Below, one piece after another: positions 39,624-57,621 of a stretch of DNA of 64,000 bases (position 1 is its first letter; each line of letters opens with the position of its first letter). The DNA lies in contig OY762492.1 in NCBI GenBank assembly GCA_963665845.2, forward strand, positions 1,856,001 to 1,920,000. The letters are read 5' to 3'. The translations under genes and the position numbers were made by a program. The notes under the pieces were generated by a model that was not told where the DNA came from, made no database searches, and worked only from the letters and a program-made list of their open reading frames with translations. The stretch is from Candidatus Poribacteria bacterium. GTDB taxonomy: Bacteria > Poribacteria > WGA-4E > GCA-2687025.

Positions 39624-41942
39624 TTATTTCAACAGAACCATGCGCCGCGTTTCTGAAAAGCTGCCCGCCTCAATGCGGACGAAATACATCCCGCTTGCCG
39701 CTGCCGCGCCGAGGGCGTCTCTGCCGTCCCAGTACGCCGCTTTCTCTTTAGCGCGGTAGGAACCTGCCGGCAATTTGCCCAGTTCCAACCGCCTTACGGT
39801 TTGACCCGCCGAGTCGTAGATCGTTATCGTCACGGCGCTTTCTTGCACCAAATCGAACGGAATCCACGTTTCAGGGTTGAACGGGTTCGGGTAATTCGGG
39901 AGAAGCGCATTCTTCAAAAGAAGAGGCGAATTCGGACGCTTCACGTCTGACCAGAAAACAGGTTGATCTTCAAATCTCCATAGCAGAACGCGCCCATCCT
40001 TCCCGCCGCTCACAAGCGAACGGCTGTCGGGAGAAAACGCAACCGAGTTCACCCACCCGACATGCCCCGTCAACGTGTTTTCCAGCTCATACGTCTCGCC
40101 GTTCCAGATGCGTATCGCGCCCCCTTCGTCCGCGGCAGCGATAAGCCCTCCGTCAGGCGAATAGGCGGCGGAGCGGATCAACCCGTCATGCCCTCTCATC
40201 TCCGCCTTCAGTTCGCCGCTGGATATATCCCAGAGACGCGCCGCCGAGTCGTCTCCTCCGGTCAAAAGCGCGCGGCCGTCCGGCGAGAAGGCGAGCGCCC
40301 TCACAACCTCTCCATCCGCAAACGTTCGAATCAGATCGCCCGATTCGGAATGCCATAAAAACGCCCCGTCGTTTCCGCCGACCGCCAGCATACTCCCGTC
40401 CGGCGAATACGCAAGCGAACGCGCGCTCCGCTGATCGCCTTTCAGCTCCGCAGACGCCCCGCCCGAATCGATCCGCCATATATAAACGCCTTTGCGTTGA
40501 GAGTTGGGATTAATGAACGCGATCGATTTGCCGTCCGGCGAAAACGTGAACGACCGCGATTCGTAGTCTGCCAACTCCGCTGCGATCTCCCCCGTCTCGG
40601 CATTTTTAATCTGTATGCCTCTGTCCGATACAAGGGAGGCAATCCATCGACCGTCATGCGAAAACTCCGCATGCCCCCCGTAAGTCCAGTACTTCGCCTT
40701 TTCCCGCCCCGTTAAAAGATCCCAAATCCGAATCGACCTGTCCCCGGACCAGATGCGCATAGGCGAGCTGAGGATGCAGCGGCCGTCAGGAGAAAAAGAA
40801 ACGGACTCAATCGGCGTGTGGTTCGCGGGCGCCTCCCCTTTCACCTCTCCTGTCTCGATGTCCCAGACGCGCGTTCTGGACCGATCATAGCCATCCCAAA
40901 CGACGGTTGAAGAGGCGGCTGTCCGTCCGTCCGGCGACAGCGTTGTACCGTATACGCTCCCGTTAAACGTCGAGACGAGGTTCCCCGTCTCCGCATCCCA
41001 AATTTGCCCCGTATTCGAATCGAAGCCGACGACCAACTTGCCGCTGTCTTCTGAGAAGAAAGGCTGCGCATACGTATTGGACGGCCTTCGATTTGTCTGT
41101 AAAATCATTCCCGTTTCCAGTTCCCACAGCGCAACGATCTGGCTGCCGCTCACGCTCAACAGCCTTCGTCCGTCGGGAGAGAACGCGGCTTGGCTCAAAT
41201 CTCCGCCAAAAGACAATCTCATCGTACCTGTTTCCAAGTCCCATATCTCTGCCGTTCCGGTTGCGTCGCGGTCTTCTCTTTTGAAGCGAACGAGCGCCAT
41301 TGACCGGTTGTCGGGAAGGAACGCAATGCGGTACCGATACTCCAAAACCTGTCCAGGAATGCTGATCTGATGTTTCATCTGCAGCGTTTCAGCGTTCCAA
41401 ATAATAACGCCGCCTTTCCAGGAGCCGGCAATCAGCCGCCCGTCATGCGAATGAATCAGCGAATCAAGATGAACGCCGACATTTTCCAATTTTCCCATCA
41501 TCTCCCCAGACATCAAATCCCAGACGCTCAAAGCGTTGGAATAGTCGTAGACAGCGATCGTTCGCCGGTCCGGCGACAGGGCGACATCCCAACAAATGCC
41601 CAGTTGATCGGAAATCGGGAGACGCTCGCCGGTCTTCACATCATGCGCCTGCAGCCTGTAAAAGCTGGAGCTGACAAGATAGCGGCTATCCGGCCAAAAG
41701 CGCATCCAGTCCACCTCCGCATGATGCCCTGCCAGCGTCCGTATGAGCGTTCCTGTTGAGTAGCGCCAGAGCTGTATTGTTCCGCTGTCCCCGCCGCTCG
41801 CAAGCGTTTTTCCGTCCGGCGACAACGCCAACGAAGCGATCGTTCCTGGATGCGTCCCAACAACCTTCTGCGCAAAACCGTTCTCAACCGGCAGCCAAAA
41901 TGCCGCTAACGCCGCCAAAATCGACACCGCAGCCCGTCTCAT
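39624..41942 (-). CDS. Secreted WD40-repeat protein with CTD (copy 3)
   Basis: Same architecture; closest to copy 6. Confidence 0.92.
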   Translation of the reverse strand: MRRAAVSILAALAAFWLPVENGFAQKVVGTHPGTIASLALSPDGKTLASGGDSGTIQLWRYSTGTLIRTLAGHHAEVDWMRFWPDSRYLVSSSFYRLQAHDVKTGERLPISDQLGICWDVALSPDRRTIAVYDYSNALSVWDLMSGEMMGKLENVGVHLDSLIHSHDGRLIAGSWKGGVIIWNAETLQMKHQISIPGQVLEYRYRIAFLPDNRSMALVRFKREDRDATGTAEIWDLETGTMRLSFGGDLSQAAFSPDGRRLLSVSGSQIVALWELETGMILQTNRRPSNTYAQPFFSEDSGKLVVGFDSNTGQIWDAETGNLVSTFNGSVYGTTLSPDGRTAASSTVVWDGYDRSRTRVWDIETGEVKGEAPANHTPIESVSFSPDGRCILSSPMRIWSGDRSIRIWDLLTGREKAKYWTYGGHAEFSHDGRWIASLVSDRGIQIKNAETGEIAAELADYESRSFTFSPDGKSIAFINPNSQRKGVYIWRIDSGGASAELKGDQRSARSLAYSPDGSMLAVGGNDGAFLWHSESGDLIRTFADGEVVRALAFSPDGRALLTGGDDSAARLWDISSGELKAEMRGHDGLIRSAAYSPDGGLIAAADEGGAIRIWNGETYELENTLTGHVGWVNSVAFSPDSRSLVSGGKDGRVLLWRFEDQPVFWSDVKRPNSPLLLKNALLPNYPNPFNPETWIPFDLVQESAVTITIYDSAGQTVRRLELGKLPAGSYRAKEKAAYWDGRDALGAAAASGMYFVRIEAGSFSETRRMVLLK

Positions 41943-41957
41943 CGTCCATTCTCCTCT

Positions 41958-44306
41958 TTATTTCAACAGAACCATGCGCCGCGTTTCTGAAAAACTGCCC
42001 GCCTCAATGCGGACGAAATAGACGCCGCTGGCGGCGGGCGCGCCGAGGGCGTCCCTGCCGTCCCAGTATGCCGCTTTCTCTTTAGCGCGGTAGGAACCCG
42101 CCGCTAATTGCCCCATCTCCATGCGCCTGACCATTTGACCCGCCGAGTTGTAGACCGAGATCGTCACGGCGCTTTCTTGCGCCAGATCGAACGGTATCCA
42201 CGTTTCGGGGTTGAACGGGTTTGGGTAATTCGGGAGGAGCGCGTTCTTGAAAAGAAGAGGCGAATTCGGACGCTTCACGTCTGACCAGAAAACAGGTTGA
42301 TCTTCAAATCTCCACAGCAGGACGCGGCCGTCTTTTCCGCCGCTCACAAGCGAACGGCTGTCGGGAGAAAACGCAACCGAATTCACATGCCCGAAATGCC
42401 CCCTCAATGTCTTCTCCAGCTGAAACGTCTTGGCGCTCCAAATCCGTACCGTTCCGTCTTTGCCTGCGCTGGCGATACGCTGTCCGTCAGGCGAATACGC
42501 TACAGCATGGACGGCGCCCTCATGTCCGGTCATCTTTCCTCTCAAGGCGCCGTTCTTTGCGCTCCAGACGCGCACAATCGAATCCTCGTCTCCAACCGCT
42601 ATGGATCCCCCGCTCGGCGACAACGCCAGCGCATAATCCGCATAAATAGACCCAACCTCTTCCACGGTTCGAAGAATCTCCCTCGTCTTCACATCCCAAA
42701 GATGGACGCTTCCCCTGCCAACGGCAGCTAAAACGCTTCCGTCTTTTGAAAACTTCAGCTCCGAAGCCCGCCCGCTCGGAGCCGTGAGCGCCTCCTCCGC
42801 CTTCCCCGTTAAGATGTCCAGAAAGCGCACGATCCCTTGTTTATGAGCAGTGTCGTTAAAGGCGAGCGTCTTTCCGTCAGGAGAATAGGCAAACGAACTC
42901 GGAGAGCGGTCGCTCAATTCCAAGATCGGTTTTCCCGTCTCCGCGTCCCATACGCCGATCGCATAACGACCCGGTCTGACGCAGGCAACGGTCCGCCCGT
43001 CCGGCGAAAACGCGGAAGGTCCAGGATAGGCTTTGATATTCCTTTTCTCCTCCCCGGCGGAGACATCCCAAATGCGAATGGCATCGTCCAAGGACCAAAG
43101 CCCTCCTTCGGCGCACGAGCTGGCGACAAAGCGCCCGTCCGGCGAAAACGATAAAGACGCAATCTCCGAACTCCCCCATACTGAGAATTGAGCGGTTTGC
43201 CGCCCTTGAATGTCCCAGCGAGTGTACTCTGTGTCTTGAAACGGCGCGCTCCTCCTCGTTAACAGACCATTTGACGACAACAAAATTCGGTTCCGATGGC
43301 CGCTCTCTACGACCGACAACAGCTTTTTTGCCTCCATATCCCAAATTTGAATTGTCCTCGTACCGCTTTCCCTGTTGTCTCTTGAAGCGGCCATGAGCCT
43401 GCTGTCCGATGAAAAAATCGGTCGGCTAAAGCCCTCCTCAAACGCGATCAACTCCTCTCCCGTTCTCAAATCCCAAAGACGCGCCTTCCCGCCGCTGTAC
43501 GCCGTTAGGGCGCTTCCGTCCGGCGCTAACATGGCATCCGTGAGACCTTCCCCAAACTCAAACCGATTCTGCCCAGTCTCCGCATCCCAAACATGGACAG
43601 CGGCATGATCCTTTTGATCGTACCTTGTATGGCTAAGGCTGGCGATCAATCGGTTGCCGGGGAGGAACGCAATGCGGTAATCATGCAGATACGGCCGCCA
43701 TAACCGCGAATCAACCGGCGTTTTGAAGCGCGTTTTCAATTGACCCGCCGCCGCGTCCCAAATATAAACACTCTCATTCCCGGCGCCGGCGACGAGCCTT
43801 CCGTCATGCGAAAAAACAAGACCGTAAATACGATCGCTCACCGGCTCCATCTCTCTTTTCAGCTGCCCCGTTTCCACATCCCAAAGCTGTATTGCGTTGT
43901 CCGATTTCTCGGCGGCGATCGTCTGCCCGTCAGGAGAAAATGCGAATGCGCCGACGCTGTCCAATTCTTCCGATACCGACTTCAGCTTCCCATTCGCCGC
44001 ATCCCAAATGCGGATTTCTAAAAAACTAAACACAGCAAGATACCGGCCGCCCCCCTTGAACCCCAACCACTCGCCTTCCCATCTAGGCGCCTCCATCGAA
44101 TGAATCATGCGCCCTGTTTGAGCGTCCCAGATCCGCACAAGCCTATTTGTGTCCCCCGTTGCAAGCAGCTCCCCGTCAGACGACAACGCCGCCTGGTAAA
44201 TAGTTCCAGGATGCCGCCCAACAACCCTCTGCGCTTCCCCCTCGTCAACCAAGAGAAGCCAACACGCCAAGCCCGCCAATGCCAAACATGCCCCGCGTTT
44301 CATCAT
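41958..44306 (-). CDS. Secreted WD40-repeat protein with CTD (copy 2)
   Basis: Same architecture; likely start MMKRG at 44306 after AAGGAG. Confidence 0.92.
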   Translation of the reverse strand: MMKRGACLALAGLACWLLLVDEGEAQRVVGRHPGTIYQAALSSDGELLATGDTNRLVRIWDAQTGRMIHSMEAPRWEGEWLGFKGGGRYLAVFSFLEIRIWDAANGKLKSVSEELDSVGAFAFSPDGQTIAAEKSDNAIQLWDVETGQLKREMEPVSDRIYGLVFSHDGRLVAGAGNESVYIWDAAAGQLKTRFKTPVDSRLWRPYLHDYRIAFLPGNRLIASLSHTRYDQKDHAAVHVWDAETGQNRFEFGEGLTDAMLAPDGSALTAYSGGKARLWDLRTGEELIAFEEGFSRPIFSSDSRLMAASRDNRESGTRTIQIWDMEAKKLLSVVESGHRNRILLSSNGLLTRRSAPFQDTEYTRWDIQGRQTAQFSVWGSSEIASLSFSPDGRFVASSCAEGGLWSLDDAIRIWDVSAGEEKRNIKAYPGPSAFSPDGRTVACVRPGRYAIGVWDAETGKPILELSDRSPSSFAYSPDGKTLAFNDTAHKQGIVRFLDILTGKAEEALTAPSGRASELKFSKDGSVLAAVGRGSVHLWDVKTREILRTVEEVGSIYADYALALSPSGGSIAVGDEDSIVRVWSAKNGALRGKMTGHEGAVHAVAYSPDGQRIASAGKDGTVRIWSAKTFQLEKTLRGHFGHVNSVAFSPDSRSLVSGGKDGRVLLWRFEDQPVFWSDVKRPNSPLLFKNALLPNYPNPFNPETWIPFDLAQESAVTISVYNSAGQMVRRMEMGQLAAGSYRAKEKAAYWDGRDALGAPAASGVYFVRIEAGSFSETRRMVLLK

Positions 44307-44317
44307 CCAATCTCCTT

Positions 44318-46651
44318 TCATTTTAAAAGAACCATGCGCCGCGTTTCTGAAAAGCTGCCCGCCTCAATGCGGACGAAATAGACGCCGCTGGCGGCGGGCG
44401 CGCCGAGGGCGTCCCTGCCGTCCCAGTACGCCGCCTTCTCTTTAGCGCGGTAGGAACCTGCCGGCAATTTGCCCAGTTCCAACCGCCTTACGGTTTGACC
44501 CGCCGAGTCGTAGATCGTTATCGTCACGGCGCTTTCTTGCGCCAAATCGAACGGAATCCACGTTTCAGGGTTGAACGGGTTTGGGTAATTCGGCAGAAGC
44601 GCGTTCTTCAAAAGAAGAGGCGAATTCGGGCGTTTAACGTCTGACCATAAAACAGGTTGATCTTCAAACCTCCACAGCAGGACGCGGCCGTCTTTTCCGC
44701 CGCTCACAAGCGATTTGCTGTCGGGAGAAAACGCAACCGCGTTCACCCACCCGACATGACCCCTCAACGTCTTCTTCAGCGCAAACGTTTTGGCGCTCCA
44801 GATCCGTACCGTCCCGTCCTTTCCTCCGCTGGCGATACGCTGTCCGTCAGGCGAGTACGCCAAGGCATGAACGGCGCCCTCATGACCAATCATCTTTCCT
44901 GTCAACGCGCCGTTCTTCGCGCTCCAGACGCGCGCGACCGAGTCTTCTCCTGCAACCGCTATCGATTCCCCGCTCGGCGACAACGCCAGCGCATGAACAT
45001 ACCCGAACCCTTCCACCGTTCGAAGAATCTCCCGTGTCTCCATATCCCAAAGATAGACCTTCTCCTCGCTCCCAGAAGCGGCTAACAAGCTTCCGTCTCT
45101 TGAAAACGTCAGCTTAGAAATCCATCTGCTAGGAGACATGAGCGTCTCCTCCGCCTTCCCGGTTGAGATGTCTAAGAAACGCACGACCTCTTGTTTCTTG
45201 ACCGCGTCATCGAAGGCGAGCGTCTTTCCGTCAGGAGAATAGGCAAACGAACTGGGAGAGTAGCCGTTCAATTCCACGATCTGCTCGCCTGTTTCGGCGT
45301 CCCATACGCCGATCGTGTCATCATGGCTGACGCCGGCGACGGTCCGCCCGTCCGGCGAAAATATGGACGGTTCAGAATAGGTACGGATATGCCTCTTTTC
45401 CTCCGCGGTTGAAACGTCCCAGATGCGAATGCCTTCATCTGTGAGCCATATATCGTTGCAGGAGCTGGCAACAAAAAGCCCGTCCGGCGAAAACGACAAC
45501 GACTCAATTTCCGAAGTACCCGCAACTGAGAATTGAGCGGTCTCCCGTCCCTGTATGTCCATACGAGTGAACTCTGCCGCTCGAAGCACCATGATCATCC
45601 TCGTCAACAACAGACCATTTGACGACAGCAAAATATAGTACTGATCGCGGTTCTCTATGACCGACGCCAGATCCCTTGCCTTCACATCCCAAATTTGAAT
45701 CGTCCTCGTATCGCTTTCCCTGTCGTATCTTGAAGCGGCCATGAACCTGCTGTCTGGTGAAAAACCTGATGGGCCAAACCCCTCCTCAAACTCGATCAGC
45801 TCCTCTCCAGTTCTGAGGTCCCAAAGACTGGCCTTTCCGTCGTTGCGCGCCGCGAGCGCGCTTCCGTCCGGCGCAAATCTGGCTCCCGTGAGATAGCCGC
45901 CAAACTCAAGCAGATTCTGTCCCGTTTCCGCATCCCAAACATGGACAACCGCAATATCCTGTCGGTCGTGTATGGTACGGGTAAGGCTGGCGATGGAGCG
46001 GTTGTCTGAAAGGAACGCAATGCGGTAATCCCGCGGATACAATATCCCCCTATCCAGCGAGTCGACCGGCGTCTTGAAGCGCGTTTTCAGCTCCCCTGTC
46101 GCCGCGTCCCAAATATAAACGCCCTCCTCCCCGGCGCCGGCAACAAGCCGCCCGTCATGCGAAAAAACAAGCGATTCCACCTCCTCGATGACAGCCTCCA
46201 GCTCCCTCTTCAGCGCCCCCGTTTCCACATCCCAAAGCCGTATGGGGGCGTCCCATTTATTGGCGGCGACGGTCCGCCCGTCAGGAGAGAAAGCGAACGG
46301 ATAGACGCGGTCCAATTCGCGCGAAACAGCCTTCAGCTCCCCCGACGCCGCGTCCCAAATGCGAAGGTTTAAAAAACTGTACGCAACAAGATAGCGGCCG
46401 CCCTTGAACCACAGCCTGTCCACTTCCTGACGAAACTCTGCCATCGAATGAATTATCCGCCCGGTTCGAGCGTCTACAAGCCGCACAATCCCATTCGAGT
46501 CGCCCGCCGCAAGCAGCTCGCCGTCAGCGGACAATGCCGCTGCCATGACAGACCCAGGATGCCGCCCAACAACTCTCTGCGCTTCCCCCTCGTCAACCAA
46601 GAGAAGCCAACACGCCAAGCCCGCCAAAATACAGATCGCCGTTCGCCTCAT
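44318..46651 (-). CDS. Secreted WD40-repeat protein with CTD (copy 1)
   Basis: Same architecture; likely start MRRT at 46651 after AAGGAG. Confidence 0.92.
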   Translation of the reverse strand: MRRTAICILAGLACWLLLVDEGEAQRVVGRHPGSVMAAALSADGELLAAGDSNGIVRLVDARTGRIIHSMAEFRQEVDRLWFKGGRYLVAYSFLNLRIWDAASGELKAVSRELDRVYPFAFSPDGRTVAANKWDAPIRLWDVETGALKRELEAVIEEVESLVFSHDGRLVAGAGEEGVYIWDAATGELKTRFKTPVDSLDRGILYPRDYRIAFLSDNRSIASLTRTIHDRQDIAVVHVWDAETGQNLLEFGGYLTGARFAPDGSALAARNDGKASLWDLRTGEELIEFEEGFGPSGFSPDSRFMAASRYDRESDTRTIQIWDVKARDLASVIENRDQYYILLSSNGLLLTRMIMVLRAAEFTRMDIQGRETAQFSVAGTSEIESLSFSPDGLFVASSCNDIWLTDEGIRIWDVSTAEEKRHIRTYSEPSIFSPDGRTVAGVSHDDTIGVWDAETGEQIVELNGYSPSSFAYSPDGKTLAFDDAVKKQEVVRFLDISTGKAEETLMSPSRWISKLTFSRDGSLLAASGSEEKVYLWDMETREILRTVEGFGYVHALALSPSGESIAVAGEDSVARVWSAKNGALTGKMIGHEGAVHALAYSPDGQRIASGGKDGTVRIWSAKTFALKKTLRGHVGWVNAVAFSPDSKSLVSGGKDGRVLLWRFEDQPVLWSDVKRPNSPLLLKNALLPNYPNPFNPETWIPFDLAQESAVTITIYDSAGQTVRRLELGKLPAGSYRAKEKAAYWDGRDALGAPAASGVYFVRIEAGSFSETRRMVLLK

Positions 46652-46687
46652 CGTCCCAGCTCCTTCCACGCCTATTCAGGAGCGTTA

Positions 46688-47105: not shown

Positions 47106-47981
47106 ATGAACGATACAAGCCCCCGCCGCTTCCCTCTTTACGGCGTTCTTGGGCTGGCGCTCATTCTCGCCGCCCAAGCATGCGCCGCATACGATTATTT
47201 CAACGACGGCGCCAACGCCGCCGCCCATCGCGTCAGCCTCCATGCAACCGCAATCTGCTGGTGGGGGTATATCCTATTCATCGACGCATGGATACGGCGC
47301 ATGAAAGGCGAGTCGCTCCTGACGACGCGCCGCGCCGAGTTTGCCGTCATGCTGCCGCTTTCCGTTATTTTTTGGGTTCTGTTTGAGTTTTACAACTTCC
47401 ATCTCATCAACTGGCGGTACGAGGGGCTGTCGCATCTTCACTGGGAGCGGATCATCGGGTCGACAGCGGCGTTTGCGACCGTCCTGCCGGGCGTCCTGCT
47501 GACAAGCGAATGGCTGGACGCAAAGGGTGTTTTCCGCAACCTGAAAATCGAACCGCTGCGCGTCGACGGACGGCTCACCTTCGGGCTGATCCTGTTCGGG
47601 ACGGTATGCGCGGTCGTTCCGCTCATGCTGCCGCAGGCGTGGGCGAAATACGCCTTCGCGCCGGTTTGGATCGCGTACGCGTTCATGCTGGATCCGATCA
47701 ACCGCGCGAACGGGGCGCCCTCCTTGCTCGCCGACTTTGAACGCGGGCACCTGGGAAAGGCGGCGTCTCTCTTTGCGGCGGGACTGCTCTGCGGCTTCTG
47801 GTGGGAATCATGGAACTGGTTTGCGGCGGCGAAATGGAAATACCAGGCTCCGTTCACGCCCGGCATCTCCATCTTTGAGATGCCGATGGCGGGCTTTTTG
47901 GGCTTCGCGCCGTTTGCATGGGAGCTGTATGCGATGTACCATTTTGTATGGGCGGTTGGGCGGTCGCCGCGGAGGAAATGA
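47106..47981 (+). CDS. Conserved hypothetical integral membrane protein
   Basis: About 8 TM segments; internal repeat FEFYN...NWRY / WESWN...KWKY; FEMP..GFLGF.PF. Confidence 0.75.
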   Translation: MNDTSPRRFPLYGVLGLALILAAQACAAYDYFNDGANAAAHRVSLHATAICWWGYILFIDAWIRRMKGESLLTTRRAEFAVMLPLSVIFWVLFEFYNFHLINWRYEGLSHLHWERIIGSTAAFATVLPGVLLTSEWLDAKGVFRNLKIEPLRVDGRLTFGLILFGTVCAVVPLMLPQAWAKYAFAPVWIAYAFMLDPINRANGAPSLLADFERGHLGKAASLFAAGLLCGFWWESWNWFAAAKWKYQAPFTPGISIFEMPMAGFLGFAPFAWELYAMYHFVWAVGRSPRRK

Positions 47982-48036
47982 GGCGATCTGCCGTCTGGAA
48001 ACATCAGCGAATTCGATTCGCTCCAAGGCGTCTTTA

Positions 48037-48045
48037 TGCTATACT
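48037..48045 (+). promoter_or_regulatory. Putative extended -10 element
   Basis: TGcTATACT ~25 bp upstream of AGGAGAG-ATG at 48070. Confidence 0.45.
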
Positions 48046-48069
48046 CAAGACACGGCAGAGGAGAGATTT

Positions 48070-49044
48070 ATGCAGCGAAACGGCAACGGGTTCGGGCTTG
48101 TCATGTCGGACATCATGGAGGCGATCGTTGATCCCGCTAGGTTTCGAGAGCGGTTCGAGCGCGTCACAGAAGAGTTGGAGCGCGCCCGAGAGAAATACGA
48201 TGCTGAAGAAAATAAGATTTTAGAGAAGGTCGATACGGGCGAATTTGACCGCATCATTGAGGCGGAGACGGACAGCAATGCAGAGGTTAGAGCGGCGCGG
48301 ACAGAAATAGAGAACGCAAAAGAAGCGTATAAGAGCGCAAGGCTGAACCCAGAAATTTCTCCAGCCGAAAAGCTGCGCCTGTGGGAAGCATTAAAAGACG
48401 CTGAAGACACCCATTACCAAGCGCGGCATCAGGCGCAAGAAGAAGCGCTAGAGCGAATGCGCGCCCCGATGACACGCGCTAAAGCCGAAGTCGACAAGCT
48501 CGGTACTGAGCTGAAGCAGATGCAGCCGGCGTACTATTTCCTGAAAATGGACGACCGGCTGAAGGCGGTGGAGAGCCGAACAGAGGGGATTGAAACGTAC
48601 AAGAGCCGAACAGATCATCTCTGGGGATCCGATCTGGAACGGGTGATGTCGAAGAAAATCGTCGGATACCTCCCAAGATGGAATCTCGGCAGGCATCGCA
48701 TGTTGCTGAGCGTATCTCGCGGCATGGATCCAGATTTCATGGACGATTTAATCAAGGCGCTGGACGAAAAGCGTGTGTCGAAAAAAGAGTATGAGCGCAT
48801 CTGCAATACCGACATCATCCTAAAGGCGACCGCATTGAACGGCGCCAAGGAGGAGGTGTGGGTCGCGCTGGAGGTCTCCGCGACCGTCAACGACGACGAT
48901 ATTGAACGCGCCGCCAACTCTGCCGAGATTCTGCAGCGCATACAGGAACGACGGGCGCTCGCTCTGGTCGCAGGATACAGTATCGCGGAGCCGCAGGTCG
49001 AAAAAGCCGGACAAGCGGGCGTTGAAGTTCTCGCGGTGAAATGA
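48070..49044 (+). CDS. Coiled-coil protein with C-terminal PD-(D/E)xK-like domain
   Basis: Long charged helical N-terminus; TDIILKA...VALEVSATVNDDDIERA...ALVAG. Confidence 0.65.
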   Translation: MQRNGNGFGLVMSDIMEAIVDPARFRERFERVTEELERAREKYDAEENKILEKVDTGEFDRIIEAETDSNAEVRAARTEIENAKEAYKSARLNPEISPAEKLRLWEALKDAEDTHYQARHQAQEEALERMRAPMTRAKAEVDKLGTELKQMQPAYYFLKMDDRLKAVESRTEGIETYKSRTDHLWGSDLERVMSKKIVGYLPRWNLGRHRMLLSVSRGMDPDFMDDLIKALDEKRVSKKEYERICNTDIILKATALNGAKEEVWVALEVSATVNDDDIERAANSAEILQRIQERRALALVAGYSIAEPQVEKAGQAGVEVLAVK

Positions 49045-49107
49045 AACGGCTTCGCGTCCGCGGATGGCGGGGCGGTCGCCGCGGAGGAGATGAGGCGATA
49101 AGACGCC

Positions 49108-49434
49108 TTACTCGGAAACATCCCTCCGTATGATTCCTGGTTTTATGCGTTTCCAGTTTCGTATGAATTTTCTGATTTCATCATGGTTTCCAACGCTGTA
49201 CCATACAACATTTCCATCCTCAAATTCGCCCTTTAAAAGTCCGATGATTCTTAAGCCGTTTGCGCGTATTTGGACGAGGTCTTTATGAGATTTAAGTTTT
49301 TTATATTGTAAGGCGCCCTGAAATACGGCGGGATTTTCGTTGAATCGGGCGATCGCTTTGTCTACTGCGTCTTTTGATTTTTTATCCAGCTTGTTATACG
49401 CCCGTTGAAATCGGACATCGAATCGGGAGCGCAT
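49108..49434 (-). CDS. RelE/ParE-superfamily toxin-like protein
   Basis: 108 aa, basic, AT-rich; RFQRAYNKLD...LQYKKLK...IRANGLRIIG...WYSVGNHDE. Confidence 0.72.
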   Translation of the reverse strand: MRSRFDVRFQRAYNKLDKKSKDAVDKAIARFNENPAVFQGALQYKKLKSHKDLVQIRANGLRIIGLLKGEFEDGNVVWYSVGNHDEIRKFIRNWKRIKPGIIRRDVSE

Positions 49435-50243
49435 TATTTGTGTCCGGACGGAGATGTTGACGTCTTGCCTGCGAGGTCATTTGCGTTTGCCTCGTCTGCC
49501 CATGCTCGAAACGCTTCTTTTGTGTCGGGTTCACTGTATAATTCGTCCCACTTTTCTTGGGCTTTTCTTTCAGATTCCATGATCGGCTCAAACTTTTCTT
49601 CGTACAGGTCGGGGTTGAGCGAGATTGCCCAGTAGATGTCTTCGTGCGCGAGGTCGGTTTCGCCCCTTTCTTGGTGGAAGAGTCCTTTTATGAGATACGC
49701 TTCCGCGCAGAGCGGATTGAGTTCGATCGCTTTTTCAAGGCTCTGGATCGCGTTGTCCGGCGCGCCCAGTTGCCAATGCGTGTGTCCCAAGAGTATGTAG
49801 GTCGTTTCCATCGGGAGCAGCTCGCCAGATTTTTCAAAATCTGCCGCCGCTTGCTCTAACGGAAGATCGCGGTTTATTGCGTTCCACAGCAAGCCGACAA
49901 CGCCTCGGAGTCCGTAAACGCTGCCCAAAGACTCTGGATCGTCCAAATTGCGCATCAGCGAAATTGCTTCGCTAAAATGCGCTCGCGCTTTTTCAAAATC
50001 GGCTTCCGACGCGGGCGCGTCATCGTCTATCAGATGCGTCAACGCTCGTATCAACGCGGATTTTCCTGCGTCCACGGCAGATTGCGTCGGAAAGAACTTG
50101 GGCGGCGGCGCCTTTTCCGCCATCGGCAGCGTTACCTCCACCGACGCCTCCGAATTTATCGAAAGCCGCACCGGAAAAGAGGACGGAAGAGACGGCGCCG
50201 CCGCCCTATTCGATCCCGTTCCAAGCCTCTGCGTTCTCAACAT
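49434..50243 (-). CDS. TPR protein with C-terminal antitoxin-like acidic helix
   Basis: TPR motifs (AIQSLEKAIELNPLCAEAYLIKG, AISLNP); tail EKWDELYSEPDTKEAFRAWADEANANDLAGKT; TAATG overlap with the toxin-like gene. Confidence 0.75.
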   Translation of the reverse strand: MLRTQRLGTGSNRAAAPSLPSSFPVRLSINSEASVEVTLPMAEKAPPPKFFPTQSAVDAGKSALIRALTHLIDDDAPASEADFEKARAHFSEAISLMRNLDDPESLGSVYGLRGVVGLLWNAINRDLPLEQAAADFEKSGELLPMETTYILLGHTHWQLGAPDNAIQSLEKAIELNPLCAEAYLIKGLFHQERGETDLAHEDIYWAISLNPDLYEEKFEPIMESERKAQEKWDELYSEPDTKEAFRAWADEANANDLAGKTSTSPSGHK

Positions 50244-50371
50244 CTCAACAGCCTCCCGCTCAAAACCGCCCTATCAGTTTAGCGCCGGAACGGCCGCATA
50301 GCAAGCGGGCGCCGTAAGATTTCCATGCCGGCTGGATGCAAACGCGGCGGCGTTCGGATATACTTAACGGC

Positions 50372-51184
50372 ATGAACAACGCGCATATCAACAGCCCCGA
50401 AATCGTCACGACGCCGACGTTCGACTGGCTCGCCGAAAAGACGATCCGCTGCCGCAGCAAGCTGCTCATCGGAAGCCCGTATGTCACGGACGCTTTACTG
50501 GAACTGTCGCGGCTCGCGCCGAAGGGAGTGTCCAAACGGCTCGTCACCCGAACCAAAATGGGCGATTTTAGAATGGGCATGTCCAGCCTAGACGCTTTAT
50601 GCGCGTTTGCCGAGGAGGGCGCCCGCGTCTATTCGCTCAACAATCTCCATGCCAAAATCTATGTGTTTGACGAATCGACCGCGCTGGTCACATCCGCAAA
50701 CGCGACGCAGGCGGGTCTGCGCAATAACTTAGAATGCGGGCTTGCAACCAGCGACGCATACATCGCGCGCCAGCTTTCCCTAGAGCTCATGAGCGGATTT
50801 GACAACGCGGATCCGCCCCGTAGAATGAAACTGAATGAGCTTCAGGGTATGCGGGATCCGCTGGAAACCGTGAGCGTTGAGATGCCGGAAACGGAAGACG
50901 AGCGCGAAGCGGAACCGGTCATATCGGCGCCCGACAGCGAAGCGTTTTTAAATTCATTTAAGGGATGGAATCGGATCGCGCTGCGCGGCGCGTTGTCGTT
51001 CAGCGGACGCGAATTTGAAACGTCTGAATTGTATCAGGCATGCAAGGCGGACGCGAAGCGCGAATATCCGAACAACAACAACCCGAATGCAAAAATCAGG
51101 CAACAGCTGCAGTTCCTGCGCGACATGGGGCTGATTGAATTTGTAAAAGACAAAACAGGCGTGTACCGGCTGCTCGTTAGCTAA
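50372..51184 (+). CDS. PLD-family nuclease fused to a DpnI-like winged-helix domain (putative type IV restriction endonuclease)
   Basis: SPY, LHAKIYVFD (HKD), TSANAT..GL..NLECG; C-terminal YPNNNNPNAKIRQQLQFLRDMGLIEF...GVYR. Confidence 0.8.
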   Translation: MNNAHINSPEIVTTPTFDWLAEKTIRCRSKLLIGSPYVTDALLELSRLAPKGVSKRLVTRTKMGDFRMGMSSLDALCAFAEEGARVYSLNNLHAKIYVFDESTALVTSANATQAGLRNNLECGLATSDAYIARQLSLELMSGFDNADPPRRMKLNELQGMRDPLETVSVEMPETEDEREAEPVISAPDSEAFLNSFKGWNRIALRGALSFSGREFETSELYQACKADAKREYPNNNNPNAKIRQQLQFLRDMGLIEFVKDKTGVYRLLVS

Positions 51185-51681
51185 CCCCCGCGCTCCATAT
51201 GCTGTCGGATTTCAGCCAGCTCCGCCTGCGCGTTGCGCCAAAACTCTGTCGGTCGGGCGATCTCCTCCGCCAGCTCTTGATACGGCGCCGTTCCCGGTTC
51301 CGCATTGCGCCAATAGACCTCGTTCATCATCGTCTGATCAATGGCATTCACGACGTCGACTCCCTTGAGGATGCGCTCTAGGGCGTCCATGACCAGCTCA
51401 ACGTCCGGCTCCTCTTCATGCCATGTGACGTGGAACAGCGCCTCTTCAAATTTGGATTGGTCGGTTTCTAGATACAGATTGGCGAGAATCAGCGTTTCTA
51501 TGTCGGGCGGAAATTCGCGGAACAGAGAGCAGCCGCGGTTGAAATACGCCGCGACGCTGGCGACGCATTTTGGGTTGTCGGGCGTCGGCTGTTCTCTTGG
51601 GGTGAGGTCGGCGGTGTGGTCGTAGGCATCCTCGTTCTGCTTGATGAAGTCCAGCACGGTTTGGAGGCGGTCAAGGTTCAT
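51181..51681 (-). CDS. Hypothetical acidic protein
   Basis: 166-aa ORF with codon usage like its neighbours; no recognised motif. Confidence 0.6.
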   Translation of the reverse strand: MNLDRLQTVLDFIKQNEDAYDHTADLTPREQPTPDNPKCVASVAAYFNRGCSLFREFPPDIETLILANLYLETDQSKFEEALFHVTWHEEEPDVELVMDALERILKGVDVVNAIDQTMMNEVYWRNAEPGTAPYQELAEEIARPTEFWRNAQAELAEIRQHMERGG

Positions 51682-51737: not shown

Positions 51738-52499
51738 TCAACCGCGCCGAATCAAACGAAAACGCCGGACCGAAACAACGCCAAAATCGTCAGGCTCAAC
51801 GCCGTCGCTCAATTCAACCATCGCGATCGTGTTGTCCCCAAGCTCCTTAACCGCCAGAATTCGCCTCCCCAAATCTGAAAAGTCTTGGCGGACAAGCTTC
51901 GCCATATTGGAGATCTGCGCCCGTCCGATTCGGTCGTTTTCGGTTTGGCTTTTCGCTTCGATCGGCAGGACGAAAAGCTGCCCGTTTTCATCCACCCCTA
52001 TGTACAGCGCGTCCAGTTCAACCTCCCCGACATCCTGCACGGCGCTCCGATAGTGATTCTGCAAATGAAAGCAGGTCAAGCTCGTAAAGATGTCGACGAG
52101 TCGGTTGCAAAGAATCCGCGTCAGAAGCGACTGCTCATCCCGCCGAAGAAAACCTTCAACGACTTCGGGAATGGCGTTGTAAATGTCGATAGGGGCGTAG
52201 TCGCCGAAAGCGATTTCAAAAAAGGGCGGATTTTTCAAAAGGCGAAAAGCGTATCGCCCCCTGCCGGCTCCCATGATCGCCCAATTTCCCTTATCCCGAA
52301 CGCTTTGGGGCAGAGGTCGGCGCGAGCGGTACGTGTAGACAATGTCGGGTATGTTGCGCACTTGAAGACCGAGGTCGGCTAAGACCTCGTCGAATTCGTC
52401 TTTCTCAAATTCAAAGTAATGCGCGCCTTCTTCATAATGGCGTTCAAACACGGCGGCGATGGCTTGGTCATAAATTTGACGGGACATTCGTTGGTTCAC
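51738..52499 (-). CDS. Putative type II restriction endonuclease
   Basis: EVELDALYIG...VLPIEAKS PD-(D/E)xK core; lies 4 bp downstream of an MTase gene. Confidence 0.75.
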   Translation of the reverse strand: MNQRMSRQIYDQAIAAVFERHYEEGAHYFEFEKDEFDEVLADLGLQVRNIPDIVYTYRSRRPLPQSVRDKGNWAIMGAGRGRYAFRLLKNPPFFEIAFGDYAPIDIYNAIPEVVEGFLRRDEQSLLTRILCNRLVDIFTSLTCFHLQNHYRSAVQDVGEVELDALYIGVDENGQLFVLPIEAKSQTENDRIGRAQISNMAKLVRQDFSDLGRRILAVKELGDNTIAMVELSDGVEPDDFGVVSVRRFRLIRRG

Positions 52500-52503
52500 A
52501 GCC

Positions 52504-53853
52504 TCAAGGCGCGCGGAGGATCAACACATTTTCGTCTAGGTTCGCTCTTGTGACGGTGGAGCGGCGCGTTCGCCAGAGCTCTATGCCCTCAACCTTGTAG
52601 CCTGCTTTGACGGCGACATCCGCCAGCAATTGAGCGGTATAAATGGGTATTCGGAAAAACGACGCTTGGTCGCCGACAACATATGCGCATCGCGCGCCTT
52701 TCCGCAAACGCCGCCGCAGCTCCGCCAAATGGCGAAACATGCCGCCAAAATAGAGCGAGACAACGCGGTGGTATTGACGCTCGAATCCGGACGTCTTGCC
52801 CAGCTCTATCCGCTTCTTTTCGATGGCGGCGGCGACGTTGACGACCGAGGGGATGTCGCGTATATGCCAGTTGTCGTCGTCGTTGACGTACGTGTTTCGC
52901 GTGTTGCTTCGCAGCAGATGCGATTTCAAAGCGCGCAGGTCCGCGTTGTTTTTGAGATACCCTAGCAGCACATTCTCAAGGCGCGTGCTGCGCGTATAAT
53001 CTTTTTCGTTCGGATACGGCGGCGATGTGATCACAATTCTGATTTGAGACCGCGGCTCGATTCCGTCCAGCGTCCGCGCGTCCGCCATCGTCACTTGAGC
53101 GGTCGGATAATCGCCGGAGAATCTTGGCAATATCAAGGCGAGATCGGACATCATGCGGCTCGCTGTTTGGTAAAACGCGCCCAGTACATCGACATCCTCT
53201 TTTTCCTCTGTTCGGTATATTTCAGGTCCGAATCCGATATTGCCCGCGGTGGAAACGATCGTGTTTGCCAGCGCAAGACGGAAAAAATCGGCGATGTCCG
53301 GCTCCGATACGGCGCGTTCAACAGCGTTCCGCAGCGACAACACTCTCAACAGCGGCTTGTCGCTGATAAAGCCTTTCGGGATGATCTTGCTCGTTTCGGG
53401 GGCGATGTACTCTTCAGGAACGAAGGAGGCGTCTTGATGATCTGTATCGAAGGCTGTTTTCTCTCGCAGAGCAAACAGGCGCGGTTGGTCGTCAGCCGTA
53501 TCTGGACCTGGATTGAGATCGAAGGTTTTAAGCGAGCCGGCGGCTAATTCAAGAACGTCTGCAAGCCGAGATTTCGTTTTTTCAAGATGAATCTGCCAGT
53601 TCAGTTTTGCTCTAGCGGCAAGCAGCGCAATGGGGTTCGCGTCAGAACTGATCGAGTGGTACCCCTGCATTCTCGCTTCGACAGGCGTTGTGGCGGTTCC
53701 GCAAAACGGATCGAATACGATGTCTTTGTCAGGGTTCGCATCCAGCCGCTCAAGATATTCCCGAACCAAATGGGGCGGATAACCCAGCACAAAACGGTAC
53801 CATCCGTGGATCGGTTTATCTTCCGTTTTCAGCTTATTTTTGGTTGAATTCAT
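52504..53853 (-). CDS. DNA methyltransferase, probably N4-cytosine
   Basis: HGWYRF, FDPFCGTATT (motif I), ITSPPY (motif IV), YVVGD. Confidence 0.88.
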   Translation of the reverse strand: MNSTKNKLKTEDKPIHGWYRFVLGYPPHLVREYLERLDANPDKDIVFDPFCGTATTPVEARMQGYHSISSDANPIALLAARAKLNWQIHLEKTKSRLADVLELAAGSLKTFDLNPGPDTADDQPRLFALREKTAFDTDHQDASFVPEEYIAPETSKIIPKGFISDKPLLRVLSLRNAVERAVSEPDIADFFRLALANTIVSTAGNIGFGPEIYRTEEKEDVDVLGAFYQTASRMMSDLALILPRFSGDYPTAQVTMADARTLDGIEPRSQIRIVITSPPYPNEKDYTRSTRLENVLLGYLKNNADLRALKSHLLRSNTRNTYVNDDDNWHIRDIPSVVNVAAAIEKKRIELGKTSGFERQYHRVVSLYFGGMFRHLAELRRRLRKGARCAYVVGDQASFFRIPIYTAQLLADVAVKAGYKVEGIELWRTRRSTVTRANLDENVLILRAP

Positions 53854-53868: not shown

Positions 53869-55275
53869 TCAACCCGAAAAAAGCGACAGCCCCCCTATCA
53901 GGCTCATCCGCCGTTCCGTCGTGAAGTGGGAGGGTCTGGTGAACCCTTCCCCCGTCCGCCCCGCCACCGACATCGCCAAGAACCCCGGCCCGCCGATGCC
54001 GCCGCACACAAACGACGGCGCGTTCGCCACCAGGATGCCGACCTGCATTGCCCGCGCGTAGTCGCCGACCCTGTCGGTCCGCGCCGTGTGGATCATGGCG
54101 GTATGTCCGCGCCCGCCCTCGATCTGAACGCAGACCTGAACCGCCTGCTCAAACGAACGGGCGCGCACAATCGGGACAATCGGCGTCAAAAACTCCTCCA
54201 TCGCCAGGACATGATCAGCCGACGTCTCCGCCAGAACCGCCAGGTCGTCCGCCGACCCGCGGACGCCCGCCGCCTCCAGCAGAACAGACGCGTTCTGTCC
54301 GATCATCTCTGGGCAATGTTTGCCTTCGTCGGTCAAAACGGCGTTCATGAGCCTCGGCAGTTCGCTGGGTCTGAGCAGCCTTCCGCCTTGGCGCGTCATC
54401 TGGCGCAGCAGTTCGTCCGCCGCCGAGTCGACGACGACGCATGCTTTTTCGCCGATGCAGAGCAGGTTGTTGTCGAATGAGGCGCCTTCGATGACGGCGC
54501 GCGCCGCATTTTCTAGGTTGGCCGTTTCGTCCACGAGCGCGGGCGGGTTGCCGGGTCCTGCCGCCCATGTTTTTTTGCCCGATTCCAAGGCGGCGCGCAC
54601 GACGCCTCCTCCGCCTGTCGCGCAGACGGCGTCCACCTCCGCATGCTTCATGAGCGCGGACGCATGGCGCAGGGACGGCTCGGCGACCGCCGTCAACAGG
54701 TTCGGCGGTCCGCCCGCCGACACGATCGCCTCGTTCAGATACGCCATCGTTTGAAGGCAGCAGTTTGCCGCTCTCGGATGCGGGCTGAAGACGACCGCGT
54801 TTCCGCCCGCGAGCATGATGATCGCGTTGTTGATGATGGTGGAGGTCGGGTTCGTCGTCGGGGTGATCGCGTTGATGACGCCGATGGGGGCGCGTTCCAC
54901 AATCAGGACGCCGTGTTCGTTCGTTTCCGCCTGCGCCTGTATCTCTTCGACGCCTGGGCTGAGGTTGGCGGCGCCTTCATTTTTGACCAGCTTATGTTCA
55001 GGGCGCCCCATTTTCGTTTCGGCTGCCGCCATGTCTGCCAGCTCTTGGGCGCGCTCCCGACTGACCCGCCGCATCGCGTCGATGATGTCGGCGCGCATCT
55101 CCATGCCGCTTTGGGCGTATGTTTTTTGCGCGTCGCGCGCCGCGGCGACCGCCTCGTCAGGCGTCTCAAAAATGCCCGCGCCCGACGGACGCGCGACTGA
55201 CAGCGCGGTTGGCTTCTCCTGCGTCAGTTCGCGCACCACTCGTTCGGCGATTTGCCGTATCTTCGCTTCATCCAT
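53869..55275 (-). CDS. BMC-associated acylating aldehyde dehydrogenase (EutE/PduP-like)
   Basis: ETKMG, PTTNPT, ATGG, GPGNPP, FDNNLLCIGEK; N-terminal amphipathic encapsulation-type helix MDEAKIRQIAERVVRELT. Confidence 0.9.
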   Translation of the reverse strand: MDEAKIRQIAERVVRELTQEKPTALSVARPSGAGIFETPDEAVAAARDAQKTYAQSGMEMRADIIDAMRRVSRERAQELADMAAAETKMGRPEHKLVKNEGAANLSPGVEEIQAQAETNEHGVLIVERAPIGVINAITPTTNPTSTIINNAIIMLAGGNAVVFSPHPRAANCCLQTMAYLNEAIVSAGGPPNLLTAVAEPSLRHASALMKHAEVDAVCATGGGGVVRAALESGKKTWAAGPGNPPALVDETANLENAARAVIEGASFDNNLLCIGEKACVVVDSAADELLRQMTRQGGRLLRPSELPRLMNAVLTDEGKHCPEMIGQNASVLLEAAGVRGSADDLAVLAETSADHVLAMEEFLTPIVPIVRARSFEQAVQVCVQIEGGRGHTAMIHTARTDRVGDYARAMQVGILVANAPSFVCGGIGGPGFLAMSVAGRTGEGFTRPSHFTTERRMSLIGGLSLFSG

Positions 55276-55350
55276 GCCGCCTGCGCCTCTCCTCACCTCG
55301 TTTTATATAATGACGCCCTGAATTGCCATGCCGACATCAACCGCCGCATC

Positions 55351-55442
55351 CGATTCCCCCCTTGAAAAGGGGGGCTAGGGGGGTTTAAAGGACGCGGACG
55401 GTTTCTGCGATGCCCCTAGATTCCCGCTTACGCGGGAATGAC
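55351..55442. repeat. Pair of palindromic REP-like elements inside the BMC cluster
   Basis: cccccttgaaaaggggggctaggggg followed by gattcccgcttacgcgggaatgac. Confidence 0.85.
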
Positions 55443-55468
55443 TGTTGCGGTTCGCCCCTGCGGTTCGC

Positions 55469-55771
55469 TTATTCGCCTGAAGATTCTGCCGCGGCGCGCG
55501 CGATCGGGAGTACCGCCTCCGTTTCGGCATGCGGCCGCGGGATCACATGCACCGAGACGAGTTCCCCGACGGAGCGCGCCGATTCCGCCCCCGCTTCGGT
55601 CGCCGCTTTGACGGCTCCGACATCGCCGCGCACCAGCACGGTCACCAGTCCGCCGCCCACCTTTTCCATGCCGACGATGTTCACATTCGCCGCTTTCACC
55701 ATGGCGTCCGCCGCTTCGACGGCTCCCACCAGTCCGCGCGTTTCAACCAGTCCCAACGCTTCGCCTGCCAT
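55469..55771 (-). CDS. BMC hexamer shell protein (EutM/PduA/CcmK family)
   Basis: [26 protein letters not shown]...[11 protein letters not shown]...HVIPRPH. Confidence 0.97.
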
Positions 55772-55822
55772 ATTCGCCGCTCCTTTTTCGGTTTCGTTTC
55801 GAAAACTTGTTCATAGCCGCGC

Positions 55823-56650
55823 CTACGATAAGGACGCAGCCCGCTCCTCTAACACTTCCGCCGCCACTCTCGCAATCAAAGCGGTCAACCGCTCCTCATT
55901 TATATCTTCCGACATCTCTTCCGCCGCTTCTTTCGTTTTTCCGCTGGAGGCGCCCTGATGCGCCTCTTGAATGCGCGGGTTCACATCGCACAGCGGAACG
56001 CGCGACCCCAGCCCCAGCCGCTCGCGCAGCTCCAGCAGCTCCTGCGCCTCTTGGGTCGTCAGCTCCTTGACGCCGCCCAGCGTTTTCGCCACCCATGTGA
56101 TATGCGCCGTATGCTCCAGCGTTTCCATTTTATAGTACGCGTCCATCGGGCTGGCGCCGACCGTCACCGCGCCATGATTCGCCAAGAGTATCGCGTCGCA
56201 GCTTTCGATGAGATGGTCAATCGACTGGGGCAGTTTCTCGCCGCCGGGCGTCGCATACGGCGCGAGCGGAATGCATCCGAACGAGACGATCGTCTCCGGC
56301 AGCGTCAACTCATCCAGCGCCAGCCCCGCCAACGCAAACCCGGTCGCTTTAGGCGGATGCGCATGCGCCACCGCGTGGACGTCCGGGCGCCGCCGGTAGC
56401 AATGCAGATGAAGCCTTATCTCCGACGACGGGGACAGATACCCCTCCAGCTGCTCTCCCTGCGCGTTCAGCTTGCTGATCATGTCAGGGGTAATGGAGCC
56501 TTTGCTGACGCCGGTCGGCGTCGCCAGAATATTCCCGTCTTTCAGCCGCGCGGTGATATTTCCGTCGTTCGACGCGACCATGTTGCGGGCGTATAGACGC
56601 CGCCCCGCCTCGCAGATTTCTTCGCGCAACCGCTTCTCGTCAGACATCAA
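55823..56650 (-). CDS. Class II aldolase/adducin (fuculose-phosphate aldolase-like) with C-terminal encapsulation peptide
   Basis: NDGNIT, TPTGVSKG, PSSE..LH, HAHP, LANHG; tail NEERLTALIARVAAEVL. Confidence 0.9.
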   Translation of the reverse strand: MMSDEKRLREEICEAGRRLYARNMVASNDGNITARLKDGNILATPTGVSKGSITPDMISKLNAQGEQLEGYLSPSSEIRLHLHCYRRRPDVHAVAHAHPPKATGFALAGLALDELTLPETIVSFGCIPLAPYATPGGEKLPQSIDHLIESCDAILLANHGAVTVGASPMDAYYKMETLEHTAHITWVAKTLGGVKELTTQEAQELLELRERLGLGSRVPLCDVNPRIQEAHQGASSGKTKEAAEEMSEDINEERLTALIARVAAEVLEERAASLS

Positions 56651-57585: not shown

Positions 57586-57621
57586 TTGCGCTCATGCGCG
57601 GAAGGCGCTATAAACGTGTCC

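Follow-up and report, generated by a model that had tools for sequence, protein, structure and literature searches.

A gene pair from a Candidatus Poribacteria bacterium joins a TPR part, in one reading frame, to an antitoxin-type tail and couples this fusion to the gene of a predicted RelE-fold toxin, and in relatives of the pair the tail and toxin stay together and the TPR part is exchanged. The locus is very probably a toxin–antitoxin (TA) system of type II, in which the tail is the neutraliser. The reading that we prefer, at a probability of about 0.5, is a sensor-gated anti-phage module, in which an exchangeable TPR sensor carried by the antitoxin would let a foreign protein free the RelE-fold toxin. 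The pair lies in a stretch of 64,000 nucleotides (contig OY762492.1, positions 1,856,001 to 1,920,000), called the window below, to which plain coordinates refer. A sequence-only reading of the window had proposed an antitoxin captured by a TPR sensor; it missed both the set of paralogues whose TPR parts have been exchanged and the TPR fusions to other antitoxins.

Gene organization of the locus

49434..50243, minus strand: TPR-antitoxin fusion gene P0001, 269 aa (ORF list, Pfam TPR, paralogues in the genome)
50252..50257, minus strand: Shine-Dalgarno (SD)-like GGGAGG ahead of the fusion ATG (sequence and duplex energy)
49644..50243, minus strand: variable N-terminal part, residues 1-200, candidate sensor (Pfam TPR_1 and identity comparison)
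49578..49643, minus strand: conserved junction/cap segment, residues 201-222, …AISLNPDLYEEKFEPIM (identity in swap partners)
49434..49577, minus strand: antitoxin-type tail, residues 223-269, with W232 and GKT (stand-alone homologues and predicted contacts)
49432..49436, minus strand: TAATG stop/start overlap of fusion and toxin, translational coupling (sequence)
49108..49434, minus strand: gene P0002 of the predicted RelE-fold toxin, 108 aa, related to PF24732 (model, fold search and invariant residues)

As the sequence-only reading had described, the TPR gene overlaps a basic 108-aa gene at TAATG, the fusion stop and toxin start having base 49434 in common, and the acidic sequence that it quoted is present at the end of the TPR protein, with 11 D/E against 7 K/R in residues 223-269; P0002 contains 25 K/R and 13 D/E. 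The GC drop that it reported is real at the window tail and toxin (0.564 in the TPR part, 0.47 in the tail and 0.42 in the toxin, against 0.58 in the window), but most paralogues have no GC-poor tail. At 10 fusion-toxin loci, tail GC ranges from 0.49 to 0.63 and toxin GC from 0.43 to 0.54, so that only the toxin is consistently GC-poor. Over 48888-51500 a contig of run X2 is identical to the window, and a contig of run X1 also crosses the TPR-tail junction, both runs belonging to one study that is possibly the window's own source; since contigs of other runs bridge the junction, the fusion is not a misassembly. Short contigs of relatives cover toxin, tail and TPR in RNA run X8, but their presence is no proof of transcription.

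Residues 1-200 of P0001 comprise a low-complexity leader, a helical region and TPR repeats. The protein matched Pfam TPR_1 at 50.5 bits (cut-off 27.8) in two stretches, best at residues 148-177, and a TOM70-type TPR match over residues 80-212 lay below the cut-off. Profile scans of P0001 matched TPR-type families alone and detected no DNA-binding domain (RHH/HTH/AbrB), a domain that is common, if not universal, in type II antitoxins for autorepression; no shared upstream operator was seen by eye in the upstream regions of 23 fusions. The tail alone had no match in Pfam, NCBIfam, PADLOC or PDB, and in the Atlas the fusion resembled generic TPR clusters, whereas the look-alikes of a stand-alone homologue were hypothetical proteins with no name. 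Because no signal peptide is evident in P0001 when the sequence is read by eye, the TPR part is likely cytoplasmic.

The tail might alternatively be made separately from an internal start at Met221 (MESERK), the TPR fusion being incidental read-through, an objection that the sequence-only reading had raised against its own proposal. An in-frame ATG does stand 10 codons ahead of the conserved Trp in 11 of the 23 fusions. However, the SD duplex energy at Met221 in the window, -1.9 kcal/mol, equals the median for 3130 internal ATGs taken as background (51% are as good) and compares with -10.3 kcal/mol for GGGAGG at the TPR start, all duplex energies referring to an assumed anti-SD motif, and short-type fusions have no Met at the position of Met221. 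Given a ribosome-binding energy no better than background and the missing Met in the short type, a separately made tail is extremely unlikely.

Fold and family of the toxin

The model of P0002, based on an alignment of 36 sequences, has a pLDDT of 81.5 and predicts a RelE fold; a first model from 7 sequences (pLDDT 52.9) was set aside. Its best Foldseek match is 2khe (E 4.6e-5), and the matches listed below E 0.001 are RelE/YoeB/HigB-type toxins. VIA aligned the model with 6af3 (Z 10.7, rmsd 2.7, 99 aligned) and 2khe (Z 10.3, rmsd 2.3, 84 aligned), with a marked score drop from RelE-type to unrelated folds, and the toxin profile matched RelE3 3bpq at E 3.4e-5. The 108-aa protein had been called RelE-like, a label for which the Pfam match is weak (PF15781, E 0.001, under the cut-off) and which Foldseek and VIA bear out. 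Five of six toxin paralogues score above the cut-off for PF24732 (ParE_like); the window toxin has no match to this family and is 37% identical to the closest PF24732 paralogue (E 3.9e-13). PADLOC gave no match for the fusion or toxin protein, and no PF05016, BrnT or HicA genes were found in this genome (~90% complete).

Residues L42, R62, G82 and H84 of the toxin are invariant (R62 and H84 in 36/36 sequences), and the yR of the toxin profile aligns with HR of YoeB and YR of RelE; the window toxin has Leu before R62, where most relatives have Tyr. Such residues have catalytic roles in RelE and YoeB. Since the invariant Arg aligns with the arginine motif of YoeB and RelE, P0002 is more likely a ribosome-dependent RNase than a gyrase inhibitor.

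Homology of the tail and its predicted contact with the toxin

The tail corresponds to the C-terminal half of an unnamed antitoxin of ~72 aa, which stands alone ahead of related toxins in other Poribacteria. Its likeness to stand-alone antitoxins, first suggested in the sequence-only reading, thus has a basis in homologues of antitoxin size that are encoded ahead of toxins of the same family. With a profile built from 11 tails, 283 representatives out of 1.84 billion matched at E<=0.001, and the best 150 of these 283 include 111 of <=100 aa, 24 of 101-150 aa and 15 longer ones (11 TPR fusions); domain scans of 54 of the best 150 also placed the tail behind DUF2281, HTH, DUF433 and DUF2442 domains. 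Modular antitoxin C-termini occur behind differing N-terminal domains. Among 121 genomes of the phylum, tail matches are present in 37, and in the 35 outside the genus the tail frames are short. Reading 28 of these short tail loci revealed TPR on the tail ORF in none (0/28) and a toxin behind it in 18/28 (3 broken), and at 20 additional toxin loci, all from other genera, the upstream partner was small and ended in a similar motif, with no TPR frame nearby (0/20). By eye, a related tail was also seen behind a HicB-like N-terminal domain in other Poribacteria (L165, L166, L168, L169, L171 and L172), and the genes of this set form tandem TA arrays ahead of a dihydrouridine-synthase-like gene.

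Since many unrelated N-terminal domains are found in front of the tail, any folded part may serve as its carrier. This favours an ordinary type II TA system, in which TPR would be a structural scaffold replacing a small N-terminal hairpin, acting as a folding, oligomerising or protease-adaptor part, and the toxin would be freed by antitoxin decay, following host shut-off or stress, with no specific ligand. The window protein, with two clear TPR motifs only, could also fit such a scaffold. We consider this rather unlikely in view of the diversity of the TPR parts, which is described below.

The sequence-only reading had also suggested a structure prediction of the complex, and the resulting model lays the tail over the toxin. 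The toxin together with P0001 residues 210-269, with the TPR left out and alignments built for this analysis, reached an ipSAE of 0.74, against 0.00 for the best of 3 controls, with a contact agreement of at least 86% and a partner pLDDT of at least 75; the mark for this score is reached by 116/157 solved pairs and 2/215 mismatched pairs. Tail residues 228-267 are predicted to cover the toxin face with the invariant R62 and H84, both of which are among the predicted contacts, and the GKT segment is predicted to lie against the toxin's first strand. The model supports binding of the tail to the toxin, although its score may partly reflect likeness to solved RelBE/YefM-YoeB complexes.

The fusion family in this genome and its congener

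In this genome (G000) and its congener (G008), all tail-bearing ORFs are fused to TPR (12/12 and 11/11, 23/23 together) and no stand-alone copy of the tail was found, so the concern that the fusion might be a one-off does not apply. Each of the 8 genes for this toxin family in G000 (7 intact, 1 frameshifted) has a fusion immediately ahead of it, and in G008 an intact toxin follows 5 of 11 fusions, with broken remains behind several. The fusion-toxin gap at the 12 loci with an intact toxin is -1 to +16 nt, and 8/12 have the one-base overlap. Fusions that have no intact toxin behind them (11/23) and 3 tail-less TPR paralogues in G000 indicate that TPR genes persist without the toxin; an association of short tail with toxin loss was not significant (11/17 versus 1/6, p=0.069). 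Tail-less long-type TPR paralogues are located at G000:C1 2515846, 802143 and 1112361 and at L028:2050-2583, and where the C-terminus is PIVF, the antitoxin tail seems to have been lost by internal deletion.

The fusions are limited to the genus, being present in 2/8 genomes of the family, both of this genus, and no tail match was found in the 6 other genomes of the family (61-95% complete). A search among longer proteins, biased to words of these tails, returned TPR families in 39/39 matches, and a GTDB scan gave 10 loci, of which 5 were fusions from Poribacteria and 5 were weak matches to TPR alone that stop ahead of the tail. No relative was detected among 472 pattern matches of a JGI metagenome scan. 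A literature search did not find TPR-fused antitoxins described, and comparative-genomics supplements could list the architecture.

This narrow distribution is one argument for a selfish or addiction cassette, in which tail and toxin landed in frame behind an expanding TPR family and spread by recombination at the junction; TPR would then have its own job, and the toxin would merely enforce retention of the gene or island. The GC-poor toxin genes, the open TPR frames of the fusions that have no intact toxin and the terminal PIVF kept by tail-less derivatives agree with such a cassette, but a stand-alone donor was not found in G000 or G008. We judge it improbable, also for the recurrence of the architecture discussed below.

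Exchange of TPR parts at the junction

Paralogue comparisons separate the TPR part from the tail and toxin in both directions. Relative to P0009, the window locus is 43% identical in the TPR part, 89% in the tail and 99% in the toxin, and two G000 paralogues are 34%, 87% and 76% identical in the same three parts; relative to P0155, it is 93% identical in the TPR part and 24% in the tail, and two G008 tandem copies are 92%, 53% and 37% identical in TPR, tail and toxin, the toxin pairings P0009-P0161 and P0154-P0163 being assigned through contigs of equal length and not taken from read DNA. Residues 201-222 at the junction are 82-95% identical in both swap partners and form an apparent crossover zone. 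Mantel correlations over 14 pairs, which are related and non-independent loci, were 0.83 for tail and toxin and 0.51 for TPR and toxin.

Run X7 supports module exchange independently of the paralogue comparisons, as in one of its contigs this toxin and tail follow a diverged TPR, and in another this TPR continues into a different tail. Contigs of other strains, the run X7 pair included, depart from the window sequence at 49578-49650, the stretch that encodes residues 201-222. The tail and toxin are thus inherited together and the TPR is exchanged, so that one toxin cassette would be wireable to different TPRs. The clustering of crossovers in one conserved segment would also be expected of the addiction cassette.

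The 12 TPR versions have 17-37% identity over residues 1-130, and a mere carrier would not need so many divergent versions. TPR dN/dS is below 1 in 12/12 comparisons, with short-type values of 0.16-0.27 and long-type values of 0.35-0.79. These ratios indicate selection against change in the short-type TPR and, for the long type, fit relaxed selection as well as diversification. The conservation of the short type, which is nearly identical ahead of three different tails in one G008 tandem, speaks for a scaffold.

TPR fusions to other antitoxin families

G000:C1 1300802-1310800 (L019): TPR-UPF0175 tandem of four, ahead of DUF3368/PIN
G000:C1 3493599-3496100 (L020), and 1679458 and 3609022: protein ending GGR..T..E.NER, no Pfam match

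TPR was also found in front of other antitoxins. G000 has TPR-UPF0175 ahead of a DUF3368/PIN gene, with four UPF0175 frames, one of which has 20 TPR stretches, and TPR-UPF0175 fusions with 1-24 repeats (also L109-L128, L038 and L102-L108) are widespread across Poribacteria families. Among the UPF0175 matches listed across 61 genomes, 38 are in frames >190 aa (counted by eye), and all 21 long frames that were read (20 regions of other genomes, chosen for length) carry 2-24 TPRs; a full-length ORF starts just behind 8 of the 21, and several have truncated ORFs. An N-terminal TIR is present in both TPR-UPF0175 members scanned (L111 and L113). Furthermore, two other TPR proteins of G000 precede PIN genes and have ends that we take to be antitoxin-like, for which Pfam gave no match.

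Two further arrangements were observed in G000. At C1 1690481-1693337 (L017), two TPR proteins have a common non-Pfam C-terminal end, the first lying directly ahead of a PIN gene, and a RelE-type TPR-tail gene is interspersed with the pair, the surrounding island being rich in restriction genes. The helical protein of ~180 aa that ends in GGR..T..E.NER occurs ahead of PIN genes, alone or behind seven TPR stretches.

Repeat numbers from 1 to 24 or an added TIR in the UPF0175 fusions would not be needed by a carrier, and the repeated recruitment of TPR onto different antitoxin families argues further against a mere scaffold. The same architecture with at least 3 other antitoxin types, one of them across several families, likewise makes chance insertion of an addiction cassette a poor explanation. 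It is tentatively suggested, short of a favoured conclusion, that Poribacteria have repeatedly grafted TPR sensors onto at least 4 antitoxin types as a receptor-style immunity, and that this genus reshuffles sensors and RelE cassettes at a fixed junction, which would wire new phage specificities to existing toxins.

Genomic neighbourhood

50336-51184, plus strand: PLD (HKD) domain in one chain with a DpnI C-terminal methyl-DNA-binding HTH, gene running divergently from that of the fusion
51738-52499, minus strand: type II REase (PADLOC/profile match)
52504-53853, minus strand: MTase (PADLOC/profile match)
57586-60699, plus strand: 1037-aa ORF, fused restriction-modification enzyme by eye

The proposal of a defence module drew on the adjoining restriction genes, and these are indeed present within 3.6 kb, namely the PLD/DpnI-HTH gene, the type II REase and the MTase. 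The first, a candidate modification-dependent restriction nuclease from its domains, is deleted or truncated in run X5. However, enrichment in defence genes was not significant: PADLOC matches (1e-25) occurred in 9/12 test regions against 4/12 control regions (p=0.10) and RM genes in 7/12 against 3/12 (p=0.21), with hand-picked control regions and two adjoining test regions.

Several other features surround the locus. A direct repeat of ~50 bp (81%) at 47958-48005 and 49070-49122 flanks the unannotated coiled-coil gene 47737-49044, which has paralogues at C1 861875, 102554 and 655724, and this repeat-flanked gene suggests an insertion hot spot. As a genome-wide cassette site, the ~50-bp repeat near the toxin end was rejected, since it is local. 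By eye, 39624-46669 (minus strand) encodes three tandem WD40-like proteins of ~780 aa with signal-peptide-like starts and a common C-terminal domain, and 53869-56650 (minus strand) has aldehyde dehydrogenase-like, microcompartment shell-like and class II aldolase-like genes, a bacterial microcompartment locus.

The trigger of a sensor-gated TA system could also be a protein or peptide of the host sponge or of cellular stress, and the system would then control dormancy in the symbiont. The relatives found in sponge metagenome run X5 and the lack of significant defence-island enrichment would suit such a trigger, as would the discussion of TPR proteins among the eukaryote-like proteins that sponge symbionts have. 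The likely cytoplasmic location of the TPR part, with no signal peptide evident, stands against it, and conflict is suggested by the versions with TIR and by the RM genes nearby, which makes a non-phage trigger very unlikely.

Proposed mechanism

The preferred sensor-gated anti-phage model starts from a coupled gene pair whose fusion is a single frame with a strong ribosome-binding site. The TPR domain would stand in place of the usual small N-terminal domain of the antitoxin, ahead of a tail that homology places as the C-terminal half of the antitoxin-sized family preceding this toxin family. Tail and toxin are co-inherited and TPR is swapped at the junction. The TPR ligand would be a foreign, likely phage, protein, which might move the cap helix or expose the fusion to proteolysis and so release the tail. 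The toxin, probably mRNA-cutting, would then stop translation, and the infected cell would abort.

Comparison with known systems and significance

Like the RelBE, YefM-YoeB and HigBA pairs (2khe, 3bpq, 4fxe, 2a6q and 6af3), the locus combines a predicted RelE-fold toxin with an upstream coupled partner, and in both cases acidic C-terminal antitoxin helices wrap the toxin, as a prediction for the locus. It differs from them in an antitoxin family with no Pfam, NCBIfam or PDB match, in which no DNA-binding domain was detected, and in the exchangeable TPR part of 200 residues fused in front.

According to a report on the TAC systems HigBAC and CmdTAC, a SecB-like third protein is the sensor and binds the ChAD tail, and a sensor-TA hybrid was engineered (10.1101/2024.02.24.581848). 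The locus resembles TAC, so described, in a putatively translation-targeting TA warhead under an exchangeable module, the swaps being natural here and the TAC hybrid engineered, but its TPR and antitoxin are joined in cis, compared with the separate SecB-like protein of TAC; no match to a SecB-like gene was found among the scanned neighbours of P0001. CapRel SJ46 is described as a single chain with a toxSAS toxin (10.1101/2023.12.08.570793). It shares with the locus an antitoxin part that doubles as, or is joined to, a phage sensor (a candidate sensor at the locus), whereas the locus has toxin and antitoxin in two ORFs and a RelE-like toxin in place of toxSAS.

Ternary ParA-TPR + TA systems are closer in domain content. 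TPR is proposed there as an invader sensor that reorganises type II TA pairs, BECR RNase toxins included, with the function predicted only (10.64898/2026.10.19.760177). Their TPR lies on a third ParA-NTPase protein and their antitoxin is HTH, whereas the locus has TPR on the antitoxin and no NTPase, scans of P0001 and of its neighbours having given no match to ParA. Helical-repeat solenoids are tied to a toxic effector in one chain in TPR-GreA/B-C-PIN (PMC8195603), and the solenoid of DSR2 binds a phage protein (PMC11850899); as described in these sources, both are single-chain sensor-effectors with no separate antitoxin-toxin pair, unlike the locus. TPR matches only were found in P0001, with no GreA/B-C or PIN.

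By analogy, the locus likely works like TAC and CapRel in logic, yet is built differently. To our knowledge, infection detection by type II TA pairs is known for few systems only. The 23 fusions, with the candidate sensor exchanged and the tail and toxin paired, make the infection-sensing question directly testable, and the natural junction marks where the parts are interchangeable. The family further defines an unnamed, widespread antitoxin module as a partner of PF24732 toxins, and it may give a concrete intracellular role to part of the TPR expansion in sponge symbionts. If the suggested reshuffling of sensors and RelE cassettes is true, these bacteria would gain new phage specificities without re-evolving the toxin-antitoxin interface.
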